DNA from: an uncultured Nitrospirales bacterium
Lineage (GTDB): Bacteria; Hydrogenedentota; Hydrogenedentia; Hydrogenedentales; GCA-2746185
Direction of reading: 5' to 3'
DNA length: 64,000 nt
Assembly (NCBI GenBank): GCA_964411925.1
Contig: CAYPNI010000002.1
Span: 1,653-65,652 of the forward strand
This document shows positions 31,493 to 41,792 of this stretch, one piece after another. The position numbers were made by a program, and so were the translations under genes. Below the pieces are notes generated by a model, which had not been told where the DNA came from, ran no database searches, and saw nothing but the letters and a program-made list of their open reading frames with translations. Position 1 is the first letter of the stretch. Every line of letters starts with the position of its first letter.

Positions 31493-31909
31493 CTACTCTG
31501 CCGGCAACACGCGATCGACGATTCGGCGAATCCGGCCGGTGTCGGGTTCTTTGCGAACGACGACGACGAACGGGTACCGCGCGATCACATCGGGTGGATG
31601 GAGCGGGGCCTCGCCCAACTTATCGTTGAGCGCTTTGAGCAGCCCGCCCAGGCTCGAGACGATCTTGAAAGTGCCTTCGTCTTCCACCCGCAGTAGCTCG
31701 ACGTGGACGCCGTCTCCGGTGAGTCTCACGCCTTCATCCACTTGAGCAAAGCCCATGCCTGAAAGATCGACTCGGGTGGCGGAATCGAACGTAATCCCGT
31801 TGTTTTCAAGGGCTTTCGTGAGATCTTCGACGGTTTCGATGGGGGGTGGGGCGGCGCAGGCGATGGTCAATCCGAGCCCGAGAAGGGCAACGTGTCGCAG
31901 TAGTGACAT
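31493..31909 (-). CDS. Small hypothetical lipoprotein (138 aa)
   Basis: MSLLRHVALLGLGLTIACAAPPP... signal peptide with lipobox. It sits 23 nt downstream of the MFS gene in the same orientation. It is not listed separately in the ORF track because it lies in the tail of the spurious 637-aa frame. Confidence 0.55.
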   Translation of the reverse strand: MSLLRHVALLGLGLTIACAAPPPIETVEDLTKALENNGITFDSATRVDLSGMGFAQVDEGVRLTGDGVHVELLRVEDEGTFKIVSSLGGLLKALNDKLGEAPLHPPDVIARYPFVVVVRKEPDTGRIRRIVDRVLPAE

Positions 31910-31932
31910 AGCTTGTCCATGGTAGCACACGT

Positions 31933-33267
31933 TCACTTCTGACAAACATTCGGTGCCGGGGCGTCGGGGAGCGGCACGGCGGCCCGAATGAGCGCCTGCT
32001 GGCGCTGAAACACGGGGCCGGCGACCGGATTGCGGACGAAGACGAGGCAGAGGCCGGCAACGGCGTATGCAATGACGAAGACGATGAACGCGGCGTGGTA
32101 ATCGCCGGTGGCGTCGTGGATGAGGCCGGCGATGGGGACGCCGCTGGCCTGGATGGGGAGCATGCAGGGGCTCATGAGCCCCATGACGCGGCCGAACACG
32201 GGGCGGGGGAAGTAATCGCCGACGAGCGAGCCCCAGAGCGGCACGACGCCGCCCATGCCGAAGCCGAAGATGGCGCCGGCGATCAGGAGTTCGTGGTAGG
32301 TGGTGGCGGGGAGGAAGAGGAGCGTGGCGACGGCCTGGAATGCGAGGCAGAGGACGAGGGCGAGGCGCGCGTCCACGTAGTCGGCGACGAACCCGAAGAG
32401 GATTTTGCCGACGACGCCGACGCCGGCCGAGACGGTGAGGATGTAGGACGCTTGAATGCGCGTGATGCCGAGATCGTGTGCGTGGGGGATCATGTGGATG
32501 AGCGTGGCGGCCATGGCGAAGAAGTTGAAGCCGATGCAGAGCGTGATCGCCCAGAACGTCGCGTTGCGCAGCGTGGCGAGGGTGGAGAAGTTCGACGTGA
32601 AGCGGGGCATGGGGCCGTGCGCGCCGAGATCGTCGTTCAGCGATACGCGGGCGCCGTCGGGGTTGAGGCCGATGTCTTCGGGCCGGCTGATCACGAAGAC
32701 CCAGACGATGGGGAGGAGCGCGCCGACGGAGAGCGCGCCGAAGATGAGGAAGGTGTCGCGCCAGCCGTAGTTGACGACGAAGTAGGACGTGACGGGGGCC
32801 ATGACCATGCCGGACATGGAGACGCCGGTCGTGGCGATGCCGAGCGCGGCGCCGCGGCGCCGGACGAACCAGTTCGAGACGAGGGCGGTGCTGGAGAGCT
32901 GGCCGATGCTGACGACGCCGAGGGCGAGAAAGGTGCCGATGAGGACGTAGAACTGCCAGAGGGCGGTGATGTGCGCGGCGAGGAAGAAGCCAACGCCGAG
33001 GCTGACGCAGCCGATCATCATGAGGCGGCGGACGGACCAGGTGTCGATGAAGCGGCCGAGGAACGGTGCGGCGAGGGCCATGGCGGTGTTCATGAGCGTG
33101 AGTCCCATGGCGACGGCGAAACGGGAGGCGCCGAATTCCTTCTGGATGGGCTCGAGGAAGACGCCGTAGGAGTAGAAAATGAAGCCGGTGGCGACGAAGA
33201 GTGTGATGAAGGTGGCGATGACGATCCACCAGCCGTAGAAAAAGAGTTTGAAGTTTCGCAGGAGCAT
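31933..33267 (-). CDS. Major facilitator superfamily transporter
   Basis: 12 predicted TM helices, 444 aa. The longer 637-aa frame listed on the same strand is a GC-driven open frame in a different frame and is discarded. Confidence 0.85.
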   Translation of the reverse strand: MLLRNFKLFFYGWWIVIATFITLFVATGFIFYSYGVFLEPIQKEFGASRFAVAMGLTLMNTAMALAAPFLGRFIDTWSVRRLMMIGCVSLGVGFFLAAHITALWQFYVLIGTFLALGVVSIGQLSSTALVSNWFVRRRGAALGIATTGVSMSGMVMAPVTSYFVVNYGWRDTFLIFGALSVGALLPIVWVFVISRPEDIGLNPDGARVSLNDDLGAHGPMPRFTSNFSTLATLRNATFWAITLCIGFNFFAMAATLIHMIPHAHDLGITRIQASYILTVSAGVGVVGKILFGFVADYVDARLALVLCLAFQAVATLLFLPATTYHELLIAGAIFGFGMGGVVPLWGSLVGDYFPRPVFGRVMGLMSPCMLPIQASGVPIAGLIHDATGDYHAAFIVFVIAYAVAGLCLVFVRNPVAGPVFQRQQALIRAAVPLPDAPAPNVCQK

Positions 33268-33316
33268 TGGTTAACAGGTGAACAATCTGCCGGGAGGTGC
33301 GAATTCCGCATGGTTC

Positions 33317-33425
33317 CTGGGAGCTTGGGGCGTTCGGGGCGGCGGCTGACCCGGCGCGCGTCGTCCCGATGCTTGCGATTATACGCGAGGATGCGTACCC
33401 GTGCACTCGGGCGGGCTAGCAGCCG
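33317..33425. repeat. 109-bp direct repeat, copy 1 (108/109 identical to copy 2); carries a consensus TATAAT on the minus strand at 33378-33383, upstream of the MFS gene
   Basis: ctgggagcttggggcgttcggggcggcggctgacccggcgcgcgtcgtcccgatgcttgcgattatacgcgaggatgcgtacccgtgcactcgggcgggc[t/g]agcagccg is present at both loci. The ORF track independently shows identical MHGYASSRIIASIGTTRAGSAAAPNAPSSQ peptides at both places. Confidence 0.9.
33378..33406 (-). promoter_or_regulatory. Putative promoter inside repeat copy 1 (perfect -10 TATAAT; weak -35), oriented toward the MFS transporter gene
   Basis: The minus strand reads ...gcatcctcgcgTATAATcgcaagcatc.... A TSS would lie about 100 nt upstream of the MFS ATG. 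Confidence 0.3.
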
Positions 33426-33516
33426 CCAGGCCAGCAGCGGCGACGGGGAACCTGGGCGATGATGCCACGGATCAGCAAAATCACGCCGAGGTCGCGCGGC
33501 CCGATGCTTTGCGAAA

Positions 33517-34974
33517 TTACCAGTCTGTGACGCCGATGTCGCGCAGTGCGTCTTGCGCCTCCTTGACTCCCATTCGGGCGGCGGTCACCCAATTCTCGGT
33601 CGCCTTCTTGATGTCCTCTGGGCCCAAGAGCCCTTTGTAGTACAGATTTCCAAGTTGATACCAGGCGATTGGTTCGCCATCGCGAGCGGCGGCGGCGAGG
33701 AGCGTTGCTGCTTCGCTGTAATTTCGCGGGGCGTCGCCTTCGATGTACATCATGGCGAGACTGTACATTCCGGCTGCGTATTCGAGTGCTGCCGACTTGC
33801 CGTACCACATGAGCGCCTTCGCGCTATCTTTATTTACGATGTCGCCCCCATCACGGTAGTGATCTCCGAGACGTTTCATGGCGCGTGGCAATCCACGATC
33901 GATGGCTCGCTCGTAGAGTTCGAGCGCTGCGGGTGCGTTTCGCTCGATACCGAGTCCGTCGGCGTACATGTCGGCAAGATTAGTCATGGCGAGTTCCATG
34001 CCGTCAGCGCCTTCGCCGGCCGACGCGTAGTACCTTGCGGCGCGTTTCGGGTCGGGTTCGACGCCGATGCCATGTTGGTAGGCTGCGCCAACCAGGAACT
34101 GTGCCTCTGTAGATCCCGATTCGGCGACCGTTTTTACGAAACCGAAGACTTCGCTGGCCAGTTTCGCGGCGCCGACGGGATCTTTCGAATAAACACTGAG
34201 TCCGTGAAACATGTTTCGTGCGATCCACATCTTCGCGATTCGATCGCCACGGTCGGCACATCGCTGAAAGAGGTCTCTGGACTGCAATCGATCATTCAAG
34301 TTGCCGGTGTGAGTCTGGAGCCTCACCGCTTCCTTCCGATCGTTCGCCGTCCTCAGGTCGACGAAGGGATCCACTTTGGATTGCAGAGGTAGAGGTGGGG
34401 GCGGCTCCGGTTCCGGAAAGGCGTACCACGTCCACGCCGCTGCGATGGCTGTCGCAATCGCGAGCGTCGCGACGAGCATACTGAGTCGCCGGGGCGGACG
34501 GTGCCCCGTAGGATTGGCTTTGGGCTGCGGGGCGGCGATTGGGCCCGAAATCAAGCGCGCAAGTCTGGCAGCGACCTCCGCGGGCGATTTTTCGCGAAGG
34601 TGTTCGAACTGCGCAGCACCGACACAGTACGCCAGCGCGGGCGGGAGTTCGGCGTCATCCGCGCGCACGGGATAGATTTTCTTGTCTTCTTCGAAGGCGA
34701 GTTGGACTTCGATCTGCACGTTTCTGGACTGGTTGGCATGTTCCGAAACAATGAGAATGAGGCCGCCGGAGGCCGTGATCGCCGGAGGAATGACGGCGGT
34801 ATAGACTTCGCCGGGGTTGATGTCGCGCACGGCACTCCAGCATTTCACGCCAAGCGACTCGAGCGCGTCGCGGATCCGATTCGCAGCGACCGTGTCTTCT
34901 GTCGCGTGACTTATGAACAGATAGCCCGGCCACCTCGACTTCAAAGCTGGTCCGGGTTCGAACGTGCCGCTCAT
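33517..34974 (-). CDS. TIR domain - single TM helix - Sel1-repeat protein (paralog 1)
   Basis: N-terminal YLFISHATED...RDINPGEVY...LILIVSEHANQSRNVQIEVQLA (TIR boxes 1/2 plus a conserved Glu). TM LSMLVATLAIATAIAAAWTWYAF. About 6 C-terminal Sel1-like repeats (AQFLVGAAYQHGIGVEPDPKRAARYY..., MTNLADMYADGLGIERNAPAALELY..., etc.). Lower GC than its flanks. Confidence 0.85.
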   Translation of the reverse strand: MSGTFEPGPALKSRWPGYLFISHATEDTVAANRIRDALESLGVKCWSAVRDINPGEVYTAVIPPAITASGGLILIVSEHANQSRNVQIEVQLAFEEDKKIYPVRADDAELPPALAYCVGAAQFEHLREKSPAEVAARLARLISGPIAAPQPKANPTGHRPPRRLSMLVATLAIATAIAAAWTWYAFPEPEPPPPLPLQSKVDPFVDLRTANDRKEAVRLQTHTGNLNDRLQSRDLFQRCADRGDRIAKMWIARNMFHGLSVYSKDPVGAAKLASEVFGFVKTVAESGSTEAQFLVGAAYQHGIGVEPDPKRAARYYASAGEGADGMELAMTNLADMYADGLGIERNAPAALELYERAIDRGLPRAMKRLGDHYRDGGDIVNKDSAKALMWYGKSAALEYAAGMYSLAMMYIEGDAPRNYSEAATLLAAAARDGEPIAWYQLGNLYYKGLLGPEDIKKATENWVTAARMGVKEAQDALRDIGVTDW

Positions 34975-36254
34975 TTTTCCGGCTCCCCCTCACGAGTCTG
35001 TAGCGCAGCTTTCGCTCGCGTGCTCCCGTTTTGCGCCGCCATCGCCCACAATTCGAGCGCGGCCTGCACATCGAGCGATACACCGGTGCCTGTAATGAGC
35101 ATCTCGCCGAGTTTGAACTGCGCGTCGGCATACTGGTGATCAGCTGCCTTCTTGTACTGTTGTACGGCGCGCACGCTGTCTACGCTCACTCCGCCCCGTC
35201 CCTCGCGGTAGACATCTCCAAGGCGGGTCATGGCTCGCACGTCTCCCCGTTCCTCAGCTTTTTGATACCACCGGATTGCCTCCGCCATGTTTTGTTGTTC
35301 TCCCAGCCCTACCTCGCACATGGTGCCGAGTTTGAACATTGCGATCGCATAGTCGGCATCGGCGGCCCGGCGATACCTATCCGCGGACTCCGTGGTATTC
35401 CGTTCGATTCCGATTCCCAATTCCAAGGCGTGCGCATAAAGGAACTGCGCCTCGACAGAACCAGAGTCCGCCAGAGACTGGACGCACCGCACGACCTTAC
35501 GGGCCTTTCGTATTGCGGCGGGACGATCCAAGGGAAACATGCCGTGCTCGTTATAAAGACTTCGAGCCACCCAAAGCGCCGCAAGCGGATCACCGCCGTT
35601 GTCGGCTTCTTCAAGCAATCGTCTGGAAAGCTCAAGATTGTCCTTGCCTGGATTCTTCTCATAGAGGTCGATGGCTTGCGATCGCGTCTCATCGAATTTT
35701 CTCGCGAGATCGGCATGGCATCGGGGGAGAGACACGTATCCCCCAAGCAAGAGCAGAACGAGAATGACGAATCCTGTAATGACATGTAGCTTGGATAATC
35801 TTCTCGGAGGACGGTCCTTCTTGGCGTCCGCATTCCCGTTGGGCGACCCGCGCGCTTCGCCAGATTTGATGGCGGTTTCCAACTTCGCGACGATTTGACG
35901 AAGCGGACCGTGTCTCGCGTCGATGTACTGATTGATGCTCAGGTAGTATTGAACAGTGTCGGGGGGAAGCGTGTCATCGAGTTGTACCGTCAACACGTTT
36001 TTGCCGTTCTGCACGGCGATTTCAAGTTCACGACGGACGTGCGGCGATTGAAGCGACCACTTCGACATGATTAGGACAAGGCATGTCGATTTTCTGATTC
36101 CCGCGACGATTTCGGAAGGGTACTCGTCTCCGGCTTTGATGTCGCGAGGGGCGATCCAGCAGGGAATATCTCTGACTTCGAGTTGATTGACGATTTGTCC
36201 CGCGAGTTTCTGATCCTCGGTCGCATGGCTGATGAATGCGCGGTGCGCCGGCAT
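34971..36254 (-). CDS. TIR domain - single TM helix - Sel1-repeat protein (paralog 2)
   Basis: AFISHATEDQKLAGQI...RDIKAGDEYPSEI...CLVLIMSKWSLQSPHVRRELEIAVQ is classical TIR box 1, box 2 and the S-W...E motif. TM LHVITGFVILVLLLLGGYV. C-terminal Sel1 repeats. GAGGGAGG SD 6 nt before the ATG. ATGA overlap with paralog 1. Confidence 0.85.
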   Translation of the reverse strand: MPAHRAFISHATEDQKLAGQIVNQLEVRDIPCWIAPRDIKAGDEYPSEIVAGIRKSTCLVLIMSKWSLQSPHVRRELEIAVQNGKNVLTVQLDDTLPPDTVQYYLSINQYIDARHGPLRQIVAKLETAIKSGEARGSPNGNADAKKDRPPRRLSKLHVITGFVILVLLLLGGYVSLPRCHADLARKFDETRSQAIDLYEKNPGKDNLELSRRLLEEADNGGDPLAALWVARSLYNEHGMFPLDRPAAIRKARKVVRCVQSLADSGSVEAQFLYAHALELGIGIERNTTESADRYRRAADADYAIAMFKLGTMCEVGLGEQQNMAEAIRWYQKAEERGDVRAMTRLGDVYREGRGGVSVDSVRAVQQYKKAADHQYADAQFKLGEMLITGTGVSLDVQAALELWAMAAQNGSTRAKAALQTREGEPEK

Positions 36255-36375
36255 CGTCGGCCTCCCTCAGAATAGACAGGCCAGCTATATTGGGATGCAG
36301 CGCTAGTAAAGTCAATTTAAATTCGCTTTGCGCCTGACGTTGCGCCGAGCGACGCGGGGCGATCCGCGAGGGGTG

Positions 36376-36484
36376 CTGGGAGCTTGGGGCGTTCGGGGCG
36401 GCGGCTGACCCGGCGCGCGTCGTCCCGATGCTTGCGATTATACGCGAGGATGCGTACCCGTGCACTCGGGCGGGCGAGCAGCCG
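36376..36484. repeat. 109-bp direct repeat, copy 2; TATAAT on the minus strand at 36437-36442, upstream of the TIR-Sel1 operon
   Basis: See copy 1. It lies between the kefB-like stop (36494) and the TIR paralog 2 start (36254). Confidence 0.9.
36437..36465 (-). promoter_or_regulatory. Putative promoter inside repeat copy 2 driving the TIR-Sel1 pair
   Basis: Same TATAAT-containing sequence as copy 1. It would give a ~170-nt 5' UTR ending in a strong SD. Confidence 0.3.
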
Positions 36485-36493
36485 GATCAGCGG

Positions 36494-38245
36494 TCAATCG
36501 TGATCGGCGTCCGCGGAGAGTCCCTCGAGCAGCGCCACTTGCAGCTTGGCGTGGATGAGGATGAGTTTTTTGCGCAGAAACACGGCGAGCAGGGTGACGA
36601 TGCCGGTAACGAGCAGCAGCAGTTCGATGGGCGGCAGGATGCTGGAGCTCAGCGCGGAGATGAGAAGCGCGAACAGCAATATGGCGGCGAGCGGGATAAT
36701 TTCGGCGAGGGCCATTCGAACGCGGAGATTGGGCGCGGTGGCGCCGGATCCGCGCGACTGCGCGAGGATGATGCTGAGGCCTTTGAGTTTGCGGTAGACG
36801 GCGTAGACGAAGGGGAGCGAGGCCGTGAGCGCGGCGGCCCAGAGGAGCGCGCGCTGGTAGCGTTCGTCGAGCGCGCCGGCGCCGATCAACTCCAAGAGCG
36901 GCGCGGCGAAGAGCGCCATGCCGAGGAAGGCGGCGGCGACAAGGAGGCAATTGACGGCAATCTGGGCAAGTGTGCGTCGCACGACTTTTACCGTGAGCGA
37001 TTCGCGCCCGGAGGGCTGGGTGGACTGGAGCCAGTCGGTGTAGAGCTGGGACTCGCGCCGGATGGACGCGGGGATCACGCGGCCGATGCGGGTGGCGAAC
37101 GGATCGGAGAGGCGAATCAGATAGGGCGTGAAGAGGGTGGTGATGGCGGAGACGGCCACGGCGATGGGATAGAGGAAGTCGCTGGTGACGCCGAAGCTCA
37201 GGCCGAGCGCGGCGATGATGAAGGAGAATTCGCCGATCTGCGCGAGGCCCATGCCGACGCGGAGGGAGGTGCGCGGGCCGTTGCCCGTGACGAATGCGCC
37301 GGCTCCGCAGGCGAGGACCTTGCCGATGACGACGGCGGCGGTGATGACGGCGATGGGCCATGCGTGGCTGACGAGAATGGCGGGGTCGAGCAGCATGCCG
37401 ACGGTGACGAAGAAAATCGCGCTGAACATGTCCCGAATCGGCGCGACGAGGCGCTCGATGCGCGGAAGGTCGCGGGCTTCGGCGATGACGGCGCCGATCA
37501 TGAACGCGCCGAGGGCGACGCTGTAACCGAGTTTGAGCACAACGAGACAGAAGCCGAAGCAGAGGCCGAGGACGGTGACGAGGAGCATTTCATCGCGCTC
37601 GAACCGGGCGACGTAGGCCAGGAGCCGCGGAACGAGGAGCAGGCCGGCGAGCATGGCGACGACCATGAAAACGCCGAGTTTGCCGACGGTGCCGGCGATT
37701 TGAACGGCGTCCATATCGCCGGTGACGGCGAGGCTGGACAGTAGCGCGATGATGGCGATGGCGAGGATGTCTTCGACGATGAGTATGCCGAAGATGAGCT
37801 GGGCGAACCGCTCCTGTTTGAGCCCGAGTTCGTCGAGCGCCTTGATGATGATGGTGGTGGACGAGATGGCGAGCATGGCGCCGAGGAAGATGGAATCCAT
37901 GGACGCCCAACCGAAGAACCGGCCGATTTCGTAGCCGACCCAGATCATCAGAATGATTTCAGCAGTCGCCGCGACGAGCGCGGAGACGCCGACGCGCCGC
38001 AGCTTTCGCAGGCTGAATTCCATGCCGAGCGAGAGCATGAGCAGGATGACGCCCAGTTCAGCGAGCGACTGGATGGTCACTTCGTCGACGACGAGCGGGA
38101 AGGGCGGTGTGTAGGGGCCGATGACAAATCCGGCGAGGATATAACCCAGGACGACGGGCTGGCGGAGGTGATGGAAGATGAGGGTGATGACGCCGGCGAT
38201 CAGCATGATCACGGCGAGATCCTGAATGAAATGAGTGGCGTGCAT
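36494..38245 (-). CDS. Monovalent cation:proton antiporter (CPA2 / Kef-type) without an RCK domain
   Basis: MHATHFIQDLAVIMLIAGVITLIFHHLRQPVVLGYILAGFVIGP is the typical CPA2 N-terminus. About 13 TM helices, with a C-terminal extra membrane domain instead of TrkA-N. GGGAG SD ahead of the ATG at 38245. The ORF-track start at 38308 would add an implausible 21-aa lead overlapping the promoter-like motif. Confidence 0.8.
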   Translation of the reverse strand: MHATHFIQDLAVIMLIAGVITLIFHHLRQPVVLGYILAGFVIGPYTPPFPLVVDEVTIQSLAELGVILLMLSLGMEFSLRKLRRVGVSALVAATAEIILMIWVGYEIGRFFGWASMDSIFLGAMLAISSTTIIIKALDELGLKQERFAQLIFGILIVEDILAIAIIALLSSLAVTGDMDAVQIAGTVGKLGVFMVVAMLAGLLLVPRLLAYVARFERDEMLLVTVLGLCFGFCLVVLKLGYSVALGAFMIGAVIAEARDLPRIERLVAPIRDMFSAIFFVTVGMLLDPAILVSHAWPIAVITAAVVIGKVLACGAGAFVTGNGPRTSLRVGMGLAQIGEFSFIIAALGLSFGVTSDFLYPIAVAVSAITTLFTPYLIRLSDPFATRIGRVIPASIRRESQLYTDWLQSTQPSGRESLTVKVVRRTLAQIAVNCLLVAAAFLGMALFAAPLLELIGAGALDERYQRALLWAAALTASLPFVYAVYRKLKGLSIILAQSRGSGATAPNLRVRMALAEIIPLAAILLFALLISALSSSILPPIELLLLVTGIVTLLAVFLRKKLILIHAKLQVALLEGLSADADHD

Positions 38246-38307
38246 CGATCTCCCGGGGTTGGACGATGGGGGTTCCGGATACTCGCCAGTATACGCAAGG
38301 ATGCGCA

Positions 38308-38339
38308 CCTACTTTCTTTTTGGAAAAAAAGAAAGTAGG
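38308..38339. promoter_or_regulatory. Perfect AT-rich palindrome: 14-bp arms (cctactttcttttt / aaaaagaaagtagg) with a 4-nt spacer, just upstream of a TATACT -10-like box for the kefB-like gene
   Basis: Read directly from the sequence. It lies in the divergent kefB-like / SDR intergenic region. It is adjacent to gcgcatccttgcgTATACT (reverse complement of 38288-38306), which resembles the repeat's gcatcctcgcgTATAAT. Confidence 0.4.
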
Positions 38340-38566
38340 CAAAGAAAAATCAATGTTGGGTGGAGGGTGGATCGTGGGGCAAGTAAGAACTCCCGGGAGG
38401 GATGAGTCGGCCGGGGGTTGAAAAACGAAGCTAACTTTTGGCTTGGATTGGGTTTCGAGAATGGCACGTCGCCCCCGAAGGCGATAGTCGGGAGCTGTGA
38501 AGCCGGCGGGGTCAGCCGGTATGCTGGGCGAACTTTTACTTAACGGGTGGCGGAAGGAGCGTCGGG

Positions 38567-39349
38567 ATGAGTGCGTCGATCAGTTTAAAGGGGAAGGTAG
38601 CGATTGTGACGGGCGGGGGGCGGGGGATCGGGAAGGCGATAGTGCAGAAATTCGCGGAAGCGGGGGCCGGGGTGGCGATCGCGAGCCGGAAGATGGAGAA
38701 CCTCGAGGCGACGGCGGAGGAGTTCAAGAAGCTGCCGGGGAAAATCCTGCCGGTGGCGTGTCACGTGGGGCGGCCGGAGCAGTTGGAGGACCTGGTCAAG
38801 CGGACGGAGAAGGAACTGGGGCCGGTGGACATTGTGGTGAACAATTCGGCGACGAATATCGGGCAGGGGCCCGCGCTGGATGTGACGGACGACATGCTGG
38901 ACAAGATGGTGGATGTGAACGTGAAGTCGGCGCTGCGGCTGATCCGGCTGACGGTGCCGAGGATGAAGGAGCGCAAGTCGGGCGGGTCGATCATCAACAT
39001 CGTGTCGATCGCGGGGCTGCGGCCGCAGTACCAGGGGCTCTTGTACAGCTTCACCAAGGCGGGGCTGATCATGATGACGAAGAGCTGGGCGCAGGAGTTC
39101 GGGCAGTTCGGCGTGCGGGTGAACGCGATTGCGCCGGGCCTGATCAAGACGGATTTCAGCGCGTTCTTCCACGAGAACCCGGACCGCGTCAAGGCGATCG
39201 AGCGGACGCAGCCAATCCCGCGAATCGCGGAGACGAGCGAGCTGGGATTCGCCGCGTTGTACCTCGCTTCGGACGAGGCGTCTTTTGTCACGGGCGAGAT
39301 CCTGGTGATCGACGGCGGGGCGATGATCGGGCGCGGCGGGACGATTTGA
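38567..39349 (+). CDS. Short-chain dehydrogenase/reductase (SDR) family oxidoreductase
   Basis: [11 protein letters not shown] (Rossmann), NNSA, S...YSFTKAG catalytic Tyr/Lys. GGAAGGAG SD. Confidence 0.85.
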
Positions 39350-40799: not shown

Positions 40800-41189
40800 T
40801 TAGCGCCGCGGGTTGAGGCGCGCAATGGGCACGCAGGCGTCCTCCGTCGCGCCACATTGCCTGAACGCGTTCTTCATGCGTGTGCGCATGGCCTTCAGCC
40901 GCGCAATTTTGCGGTCGATGTCCTGCAGGCGCGCGGCGATGGTGGGGGCTGTGTTGGCGCAGATGGCGGCATTGTCTTCGATGAGATCGAGAAATGTCTG
41001 GGTGTCGGCGAGCGTGAAGCCCATCTCCTGCATGTCTTGAATGAAGGCGAGGCGATCGGGGGAGTTGTCCGCGTATTCCTTGTATTGGTTTTCGCGGCGC
41101 TGGACGACGTCGATCAGCCCGCGGCGCTCGTAGTACCGGATGGTATCGCGGGAAACGTTGGCTTTCTGGGCCAGTTCACCGATAAGCAT
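40800..41189 (-). CDS. MerR-family transcriptional regulator
   Basis: N-terminal HTH MLIGELAQKANVSRDTIRYYERRGLI, a coiled-coil dimerisation region, and C-terminal Cys residues (CANT..., CGATEDAC). Confidence 0.85.
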   Translation of the reverse strand: MLIGELAQKANVSRDTIRYYERRGLIDVVQRRENQYKEYADNSPDRLAFIQDMQEMGFTLADTQTFLDLIEDNAAICANTAPTIAARLQDIDRKIARLKAMRTRMKNAFRQCGATEDACVPIARLNPRR

Positions 41190-41282
41190 GAGCGACCTCC
41201 ATGTCTATTGACCGTGGACTATGGTCCACGGTTTAGCGTGGATCAAGTCGGCGAACGGAACGACGTCGAATCGGAGGTGACG

Positions 41283-41792
41283 ATGCGTACGACAGTAGTG
41301 ATCGTGATCGCGGCCGCATGTGCAATGGCCGGATCTCAGAACGGAAGGACGGTGTGCGCCGTGGAGAGCGATGAACTGGCGACGGAATCGACGAAGGCGA
41401 GCACGGGCGAGGTCTGTTGTCTCCCGGCGACCGGAAACGTAGAGAGCGCCGATACGAAGCTTTTTACGGCCAATGGCACTTCGAACGACGCGGCGGCGGG
41501 GCCGCTTGCCTGTTCATTGACCGATTCGGAATTGCGGTCGCGGCTGGAGGAACTGCGCGTTCTGCTCAAGAAGGCGGCCAGGAACATCGTGCGGGAATCG
41601 AGCTCGGTCTCGGTCACTTTCGCGGAGGGACATTCGGCGGAGGTGATGAAGTTCGTGGAACTGGAGCGGGCATGTTGTCCGTTCTTCTCGTTCACGTTGC
41701 GGTTGCCCGCCGGCAAACCGATGGAGCTTACGGTGTCGGCCCCGCCGGGTGGGGAGACGTTTCTGAAGGAACTGTTCCCGGACGGCGATTGA
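41283..41792 (+). CDS. Small secreted Cys-containing protein, divergent from the MerR gene
   Basis: Signal peptide MRTTVVIVIAAACAMAGS. CC pairs (EVCCLP, ACCPFFSF). GGAGG SD 5 nt upstream of the ATG. The part of the ORF-track frame upstream of 41283 is antisense to MerR. Confidence 0.55.
   Translation: MRTTVVIVIAAACAMAGSQNGRTVCAVESDELATESTKASTGEVCCLPATGNVESADTKLFTANGTSNDAAAGPLACSLTDSELRSRLEELRVLLKKAARNIVRESSSVSVTFAEGHSAEVMKFVELERACCPFFSFTLRLPAGKPMELTVSAPPGGETFLKELFPDGD

Follow-up and report, generated by a model that had tools for sequence, protein, structure and literature searches.

A conserved upstream region of an MFS transporter gene recurs before neighbouring genes of unrelated function in an uncultured bacterium

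Why does one piece of non-coding DNA stand, almost unchanged, before genes that are unrelated to one another? This question is raised by a locus on contig CAYPNI010000002.1 of an uncultured bacterium, of which a stretch of 64 kb was analyzed (hereafter, the window, meaning this whole stretch; its GC content was 63.7%, lower than the value of about 66% given in a preliminary description). A 114-nt direct repeat lies upstream of a gene encoding an MFS transporter and upstream of a pair of genes encoding TIR–TM–Sel1 proteins (TM, transmembrane), while a diverged copy of its conserved part precedes a gene encoding a CPA2 cation:proton exchanger. The order of transcription on the minus strand is exchanger, TIR–TM–Sel1 gene 2, TIR–TM–Sel1 gene 1, and MFS transporter. 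Comparison with related contigs makes it probable that the repeat is the native, lineage-conserved promoter/operator region of the MFS gene, which was copied as genes were inserted directly beside it.

The two copies of the repeat identified by the repeat finder were located at positions 33312-33425 and 36371-36484 and had an identity of 97% over 114 nt; blastn aligned 109 nt with one mismatch (33317-33425 and 36376-36484), and a core of 100 nt (33317-33416) was identical. Both copies read GGGTACGCATCCTCGCGTATAATCGCAAGCATCGGG on the minus strand, as had been claimed, and each of the three copies of the motif lies 5' of the gene for which it had been named (MFS, TIR–Sel1 or exchanger) and is co-oriented with it. 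Copy 1 (33312-33425, minus strand) contains the conserved block GTACGCATCCTCGCGTATAAT at 33378-33398, delimited by invariant alignment columns and matches to a regular expression, with the hexamer TATAAT at 33378-33383, 110 nt 5' of the MFS start codon. Copy 2 (36371-36484, minus strand) begins 9 nt 3' of the stop codon of the exchanger gene; its block, recovered by the same expression and by a 20-mer search, occupies 36437-36457, with TATAAT at 36437-36442, 182 nt 5' of the start of gene 2 of the TIR–Sel1 operon. The third, diverged copy, GGTGCGCATCCTTGCGTATACTGGCGAGTATCCGGA, is situated at 38274-38309 (minus strand), with TATACT at 38288-38293, 42 nt 5' of the exchanger start codon. It was identical to the repeat at 29 of 36 positions (81%), with a local alignment score of 37 compared with a mean of 15 and a maximum of 25 for shuffled sequences, so that the relationship of this site to the repeat is stronger than had been supposed, and it has an orthologue 5' of the exchanger gene of the related contig L091 (9931-9950). 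A search for the 20-mer CGCATCCTCGCGTATAATCG, which had been proposed as a check with one or two mismatches and was made here with up to three, yielded three matches in 64 kb against 0.06 expected, namely, two exact ones and 38286-38305 (minus strand). The hexamer TATAAT, rightly described as conspicuous, was found three times when both strands of the window were counted, two of these being within the repeat, and TATACT was found six times, mostly in intergenic regions. The invariant core with up to two mismatches was found in the window only at the three known sites and in one coding match at chance level; the block is therefore not a general promoter consensus of this genome.

Contigs of relatives (cited below by numbers from L081 to L091) were retrieved via MFS orthologues with identities of 69–84%. 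In seven relatives (L081, L082/83, L084/85, L087, L088/89, and L090 were examined), the MFS gene is directly divergent from a gene encoding an SDR oxidoreductase, and an open reading frame (ORF) for a lipoprotein-like product of about 145 aa and a convergent PQQ dehydrogenase gene follow, as they do in the window. Neither exchanger nor TIR genes were found at the SDR–MFS locus of these contigs. The sequence T-[G/A]-CGCAT-N4-GCGTATA-[A/C]-T sits 100–112 nt 5' of the MFS start codon in these relatives. An alignment of nine sequences contained 18 invariant columns, 14 of which formed T.CGCAT....GCGTATA.T, while the 4-nt spacer varied freely (CCTC, CCTT, CTTC, CCGG, TGAT, TGCT, GGTT), as did both flanks; an invariant block amid a free spacer and free flanks constitutes a phylogenetic footprint. 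In all lineages the block was intergenic, co-oriented with the downstream gene and at an orthologous position, and the refuting condition named beforehand, that the motif might belong to a coding sequence in relatives, found no support. A strict regular expression matched 14 times in 2.28 Mb of related DNA, each time 5' of MFS or exchanger orthologues of the lineage. The motif was absent 5' of 160 more distant exchanger homologues; a search of genome and metagenome contigs with the exchanger protein returned relatives with identities of no more than 64%, none with the motif, and a scan of metagenome DNA with the 24-mer CGCATCCTYGCGTATAMTSGCRAG gave no match.

Of the contigs compared, only the window and L091 have the exchanger gene at this locus; the seven other relatives lack it. 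The closest homologue of the exchanger, P0152 (80% identity), is encoded on L091, where the SDR gene is divergent from the motif and the exchanger gene, which are followed by an AT-rich hairpin, the motif, the leader and the MFS gene; TIR genes are absent, and this layout therefore represents an intermediate state. The identities between L091 and the window were 95% for SDR, 80% for the exchanger and 80% for MFS. In both, the exchanger-side block lies 42–50 nt 5' of the exchanger start, and the exchanger-side copies (TATACTGG[C/T]G) are orthologous to each other, as are the MFS-side copies (...CAAGCATCGGGACG). After removal of one repeat and the TIR cassette, the window was colinear with the exchanger–MFS spacer of L091 and with the MFS upstream region of L087. 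From this colinearity, seen also with L081, together with the orthology, it follows that the 114-mer corresponds to the native MFS promoter region and the ~67 nt with which the MFS 5' leader begins, and copy 2 to its duplicate; the MFS gene is to be regarded as the ancestral owner of this predicted promoter. The GC content at third codon positions (GC3) of the exchanger gene was 0.86 (native-like), and its relatives within the lineage had identities of 72–80%, for which reasons the exchanger is considered the older arrival. The proposal of a portable promoter module is thus retained insofar as a conserved block resembling a promoter or a regulator site is reused before three unrelated minus-strand units, but not as a free-standing module, since the 114-mer has only two copies, represents the MFS upstream region and 5' leader orthologous in eight relatives, and has no transposon features.

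The inserted cassette (33426-36370, minus strand) opens with a 116-nt leader of its own (36255-36370), in which a TTGACT...CAATAT region lies at about 36290-36320; gene 2 (34971-36254) and gene 1 (33517-34974) follow, and 91 nt of 3' flank (33426-33516) close it. The two genes are tandem paralogues with 32% identity, and their products (Pfam TIR_2 and Sel1) have an N-terminal TIR domain, one hydrophobic segment (approximately residues 165–187 and 150–175) and C-terminal Sel1 repeats. Their GC3 values were 0.675 and 0.631, compared with 0.77–0.92 for nine neighbouring genes. No homologues with more than 40% identity were found among 5.8 billion proteins, and the best match covered only about one-third of the length; the cassette leader and 3' flank had no blastn match elsewhere. 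The earlier assumption that the TIR pair was acquired is supported by these values and by its absence from the otherwise colinear L091, and by its composition the cassette looks foreign. In PADLOC, the pair matched no known defence system and gave only weak TIR-domain hits; the two proteins could form a membrane-anchored TIR pair, not described before, for signalling or defence. The insertion falls within the MFS leader, ~44 nt from the start codon, and is flanked by the 114-nt duplication. The 12 nt that close the cassette, CCGCTGCTGGCC, are an imperfect match to the 12 nt with which the repeat opens, CGGCTGCTAGCC. Towards either edge the repeat loses identity, and GCTGATCCG is seen again 5' of each copy, the two copies differing there by an indel of 46 nt; the duplication may therefore have been longer, and have happened earlier, than one would judge from its identical core, which gene conversion may have homogenised. 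Extension of the duplication into the 3' end of the exchanger gene had only marginal statistics. At 33493-33519 (minus strand), over the stop codon of gene 1, TAATTTCGCAAAGCATCGGGCCGCGCG resembles TATAATCGCAAGCATCGGGACGACGCGCG, the part of the repeat that runs from the -10 box into the leader, and could be a fourth, partial copy; the likeness is marginal (score 27, maximum for shuffled sequences 26), and, if real, would represent a decayed copy marking an earlier junction.

From the comparison of these states we infer promoter activity, regulator binding and the origin of the duplication as follows. The ancestral arrangement, kept in seven relatives, would comprise the SDR gene and, divergent from it, the AT-rich hairpin (where present), T[G/A]CGCAT-N4-GCGTATA[A/C]T, a leader of ~105 nt and the MFS gene. 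In an older event, the CPA2 exchanger would have entered between SDR and MFS with its own copy of the block, now 81% identical, a state that survives in L091; this copy may have arisen by a similar duplication, or the gene may have been imported with its own operator. In a recent event, the foreign TIR–TM–Sel1 pair would have entered the MFS leader ~44 nt 5' of the start codon, duplicating 114 nt, as a result of which the incoming operon and the displaced MFS gene would both have a promoter copy. The likeliest routes are a single crossover with a circular intermediate carrying a homologous segment, which would yield exactly the order repeat–cassette–repeat, or a microhomology-mediated replicative duplication. 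No convincing terminator was found after the exchanger gene, and the TIR pair therefore probably also receives read-through transcription.

Within the block, TATAAT (two copies) or TATACT, invariant as TATA[A/C]T in eight relatives, would be the -10 element, and the promoter would have no -35 counterpart. Directly 5' of this hexamer, from about -26 to -13, the invariant CGCAT-N4-GCG is predicted to be a regulator site overlapping the -10 element: the CGCAT and GCGTATA half-sites keep a fixed place around a free spacer, as is expected of an operator. The half-sites may be read either as an imperfect dyad, RTRCGC-N6-GCGTAT, or as a direct repeat, TGCGCAT-N3-TGCGTAT, with a period of 10 bp (TGCGYAT), in which six of seven positions are identical in four lineages. 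A dedicated regulator would probably be a repressor, given the overlap with the -10 element, or else an activator replacing the missing -35 element. A shared regulator behind the three copies, as had been suggested, is plausible from the shared motif, and the exchanger, the TIR pair and MFS, each behind a copy of the block, should accordingly be co-regulated by one factor. Operators overlapping the -10 element are typical of classical repressor-controlled promoters, and direct-repeat boxes are typical of OmpR/PhoB-type regulators. The present block shares with both a length of 19–20 nt, invariant half-sites, a free spacer and an overlap with TATAMT; it resembles activator-dependent promoters in having no -35 element, and differs from the Pho box, which lies at -35, in its position over the -10 element. 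We know of no operator that matches the half-site TGCG[C/T]AT. Recognition by sigma-54 (GG-N10-GC) was rejected, because the spacing is one nucleotide too long by eye, and so was recognition by an ECF-type factor (-35 GAAAC-like, -10 CGTATA), because the apparent -35 element lies in the hairpin, which is shifted by 9–10 nt or absent in other lineages.

A similar architecture was observed near the locus in two relatives. The sequence CGCAC-N4/5-GTGTATA[G/T]T is present in L082 (7188-7205) and L090 (64-82), 5' of orthologous TPR-repeat genes adjoining the SDR–MFS locus; an orthologue of this TPR gene is missing from the window. This look-alike is a hint of a small local regulon or of a lineage-specific promoter class. 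In ~190 kb of DNA of the lineage, G[CT]GTATAnT occurred 13 times, and 12 of these 13 occurrences had CGCA no more than 12 nt upstream, two of the 12 standing before the TPR genes of L082 and L090, which hints that CGCA and GTATAnT together form a functional unit.

Several observations weigh against the explanation by a copied MFS promoter. No recombinase, integrase or transposase domains were found in ~50 ORFs across 64 kb, and no simple mechanism is known for a flanking duplication of 114 nt. For the exchanger-side copy, independent evolution or import as an operator is an alternative to duplication. The consensus promoter that had been described holds for TATAAT/TATACT, but not for an accompanying -35 element: no hexamer near TTGACA was found 16–18 nt upstream, the promoter scan reported no site in 31500-39000, and the best -35 candidates matched at two or three of six positions by eye, none being positionally conserved among relatives. 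Promoter activity of the block is suggested by its position and conservation. Read as a dyad, RTRCGC-N6-GCGTAT, the block is weak (complementary at 3–5 of six positions), and the MFS copy of L091 has a spacer of 3 nt instead of 4 nt. No cognate regulator was found in the window; the sole regulator nearby, of the MerR family, has a different operator and is missing from the relatives. Finally, the source is probably a metagenome-assembled contig, and the arrangement repeat–cassette–repeat is that of the assembly.

The AT-rich hairpin element TTTTTCTTTGCCTACTTTCTTTTTTTCCAAAAAGAAAGTAGG is located at 38306-38352 (minus strand), has a fold z-score of -6.4, and has homologous copies in relatives. 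It is ~45 nt long, has the structure TTTTTCTTTGC-N-TACTTTCTTTTT-loop-AAAAAGAAAGTA-N-G, and forms a perfect stem of 14–15 bp in a genome with 64% GC. Copies were found in L081 (1006-1044 and 2313-2350), L084 (9827-9865), L087 (203-242), L090 (9677-9714) and L091 (11774-11817), and a compensatory difference (C-G and T-A) was observed between lineages. The distance between the hairpin and the block is 0 or 9–10 nt, or the hairpin is absent. It stands before the MFS copy of the block in most relatives but before the exchanger copy in the window, and the second hairpin of L081 directly follows the SDR stop codon. With no run of T behind it, the hairpin does not qualify as a canonical terminator; it could be a palindrome to which a protein binds, or else a small element, repeated or mobile. 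Since L081, L087 and L091 have this hairpin before their MFS copy and the window has it before the exchanger copy, recombination between copies of the motif is suggested.

Among the other explanations, the one to which most weight was given, while still being considered rather unlikely, is that of a regulon operator without duplication, in which the exchanger gene, the MFS gene and the TPR gene of relatives each keep their own site for one factor and only the TIR copy is a duplicate. It agrees with the 81% identity of the exchanger copy over just 36 nt, with similarity ending ~20 nt past the -10 box, with the lack of a hairpin and the further divergence of the exchanger copy of L091 (GGGTATACT), and with conservation of the look-alike CGCAC-N4/5-GTGTATAKT before the TPR orthologues of L082 and L090. 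In the window and L091, moreover, exchanger-side copies are alike and MFS-side copies are alike, which indicates that both have been maintained since before the two lineages split. However, no additional sites beyond chance (2–3 mismatches) were found in the window, the 160 more distant exchanger homologues had no motif, no regulator was found, and all known sites lie in one chromosomal neighbourhood, which local duplication explains equally well. That the block is a recombination site, with the arms RTRCGC and GCGTAT around a 6-nt centre as the att- or dif-like core for a tyrosine recombinase encoded elsewhere, appears improbable. Such a site would explain why a copy of the block bounds every inserted module in the array motif–exchanger–motif–TIR pair–motif–MFS and why the exchanger copy of the window looks chimeric, its hairpin and GTGCGCATC half being like the MFS copies of relatives and its TATACTGGCG half like the exchanger copy of L091, although this last argument rests on very few nucleotides. 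The identities of SDR (L091, 95%; L090, 88%; L084, 87%; L081, 84%) and MFS (L086/L087, 84%; L081/L091, 80%; L084, 74%; L090, 70%) rank the relatives differently, suggesting recombination across the locus, and GGTGCGCAT presumably corresponds to the first 9 nt of the XerC arm of the dif site of E. coli. A dif/Xer site was nevertheless rejected: the likeness to dif is limited to GGTGCGCAT, nothing resembles the conserved XerD arm, and the monotonic course of the cumulative GC skew over the window shows that this is not the replication terminus. Neither an integrase nor a recombinase of Xer or another type was seen among the ~50 screened genes of the window, the arms are imperfect and no longer than 6 nt, the 114-nt duplication of the TIR insertion far exceeds the length of a core site, and the block keeps a fixed distance from the MFS start codon, as a promoter would. 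There is only a slight chance that the block is a promoter-embedded cassette-acquisition site into which unrelated modules (the exchanger, the TIR pair and perhaps others in relatives) are integrated by a recombinase encoded elsewhere; if it were, each integration would regenerate the promoter, newcomers would be expressed at once, and the locus would be a minimal integron-like platform without a linked integrase.

The remaining explanations carry still less probability. An assembly artefact, in which a TIR cassette from another molecule or strain sharing ~100 nt was threaded in as a loop, is very doubtful: the identical 100-nt core is about the size of an assembler k-mer, the cassette deviates in composition and has no relatives elsewhere, and the source, an NCBI contig of 68 kb, looks like one of a metagenome-assembled genome, but homology continues with mismatches past the identical core (8 matching nt after a T/G mismatch, and 4 of 6 nt at the other end), unlike a collapsed graph node, GCTGATCCG is present 5' of both copies, and a 3-kb circle without replication genes is implausible as a separate replicon. 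A miniature mobile element (miniature inverted-repeat transposable element (MITE), REP or Correia-like) with an outward promoter is largely refuted. Promoter-bearing elements of this kind exist (Correia, ERIC, REPIN), as cited in PMC3575422, and the repeat is of suitable length (~110 nt) and intergenic; however, the 64 kb contain just two copies and the 2.28 Mb of related DNA none except at orthologous positions, terminal inverted repeats and a target-site duplication are lacking, the sequence aligns colinearly with what in relatives is a single-copy region 5' of MFS, and its self-complementarity is unremarkable (z = -1.1). Scarcely more credible than such an element is a structured RNA leader or riboswitch conserved as RNA. 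Transporter genes are often controlled by riboswitches, and the MFS leader is long (100–112 nt) and conserved in length; nevertheless, there was no Rfam hit with E ≤ 10 in the region and none at the gathering threshold in the whole window, the RNAalifold consensus of seven MFS leaders reached only -1.9 kcal/mol with six pairs, and the MFS leader of the window folds worse than shuffled sequence (z = +1.8). The invariant block, moreover, is not part of the leader, its place being at the presumed transcription start or 5' of it.

Reuse of promoter regions is known on a broad scale: more than 4000 families were described in which unrelated genes have highly similar upstream regions; identity reaches 100% over 100 bp in some, and the majority show no link to insertion sequences (IS) (Matus-Garcia, Nijveen & van Passel 2012; commentary PMC3575422). 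As in these putative mobile promoters, the repeat studied here is highly similar non-coding DNA before non-homologous genes, without IS association and without an Rfam match. Its identity (97% over 114 nt; 99% over 109 nt) exceeds the threshold of at least 80% over at least 50 nt, and the downstream genes are non-paralogous (MFS_1 versus TIR_2 and Sel1); it departs from the strict operational definition, as given in PMC3575422, in the required interval of -150 to -50, since the MFS copy spans -158 to -45 and the TIR copy -230 to -117, with only ~34 nt of the latter inside. It also differs from the dispersal described there in that its origin can be traced, one copy being native in eight relatives and the other having arisen with an insertion at the same spot, which argues for local duplication and not for dispersal. 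Promoter capture via microhomology has been demonstrated experimentally (Li & Bock 2019, PMC6614815), and the rnk–citT fusion of Cit+ E. coli, cited in PMC3575422, represents promoter capture by duplication. In these cases, a gene without a suitable host promoter ended up behind a copy of a resident promoter, as is the case here, where the junction likewise has imperfect microhomology (CCGCTGCTGGCC and CGGCTGCTAGCC); those cases were laboratory tandem amplifications or deletions, whereas here a natural order of repeat, insert and repeat is observed and just 114 nt are duplicated. With the integron attI/Pc and dif/pdif systems the locus shares successive unrelated modules, each bounded by a short sequence with inverted arms and with a promoter nearby, but it has no integrase or Xer gene, no attC-like fold (z = -1.1) and no R'/R'' or XerD-arm sequences, and 114 nt do not fit core-site exchange. 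By the defining tests of these classes, the 114-mer is not a MITE, a riboswitch or a canonical -35/-10 promoter, an att-like site appears improbable, and the locus is a further case of a known phenomenon, promoter reuse or capture, not a new kind of element.

The genes surrounding the block have further features. The MFS transporter (31933-33267, minus strand; Pfam MFS_1, 1.6e-48; NCBIfam below threshold) is of the monocarboxylate or oxalate–formate-like type, and its orthologues (69–84% identity) keep their synteny. The unduplicated 3' part of its leader (33265-33311, minus strand), outside the repeat, contains at the start codon a block conserved in the lineage, ATTGTTCACCTGTTAACCAATG; the sequence A-T-T-[A/G]-G-T-T-[C/T]-A-C-C-T-[A/G]-T-T-A-A-C-C-A-ATG (33265-33288, minus strand) is near-invariant at the MFS start in L081, L082, L084 and L086–L091. 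No Shine–Dalgarno sequence is present at this start, while neighbouring genes have GGAGG-like sites, and the block may act as a further cis-element, either in translational control or as a second operator. The CPA2 exchanger (36494-38245, minus strand; Pfam Na_H_Exchanger, 2.3e-55; NCBIfam) is YbaL/KefB-like. The SDR gene (38567-39349, plus strand; Pfam), divergent from it, is the ancestral divergent neighbour of MFS according to synteny in relatives. About 45 nt 5' of the SDR start, the block C-G-G-T-A-T-G-C-T-G-N-G-C-G-[G/A]-A-C (38515-38535, plus strand) is kept in L081, L082, L084, L087, L090 and L091; this block probably represents the promoter of SDR, in which TATGCT would be the -10 element and a -35 element is again not obvious. 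Gene content beside SDR–MFS varies: L081 has a glyoxalase gene (1906-2232), and L084 (3674-8280) and L090 (1722-7908) have a Cus/Czc-type RND efflux operon by the SDR gene. Since the neighbours vary in this way, including 36494-38245 and 33426-36370 of the window, the locus behaves as an insertion hot spot. Farther away, in the region 40800-41335, a regulator of the MerR family (metal-sensor type, MerR_1 and MerR-DNA-bind) is encoded at 40800-41189, with a textbook operator, TTGACC-GTGGACTATGGTCCAC-GG-TTTAGCGT (~41205-41240), in a divergent promoter towards a small ORF starting at ~41284. Because of this operator of its own and its absence from motif-bearing relatives, the MerR protein was rejected as the regulator of the block, and, being missing from the syntenic regions of relatives, its gene is another locally acquired module.

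The locus offers an unusually complete natural series, from the empty site through the exchanger to the exchanger with the TIR pair. Under the explanation by a copied MFS promoter, newly inserted genes, among them a horizontally acquired TIR-domain pair, are seen in this series to draw the signals for their expression from a copy of the resident promoter, and the host gene that they displaced does not lose its own. The sharply conserved 20-nt cis-element T[G/A]CGCAT-N4-GCGTATAMT provides a handle on the regulator and regulon of an uncultured soil lineage, probably of the PVC type, whose promoters and regulators are essentially unstudied. If the TIR–Sel1 pair serves defence or signalling, its placement behind the promoter of a monocarboxylate-type transporter would predict the condition under which it is expressed.

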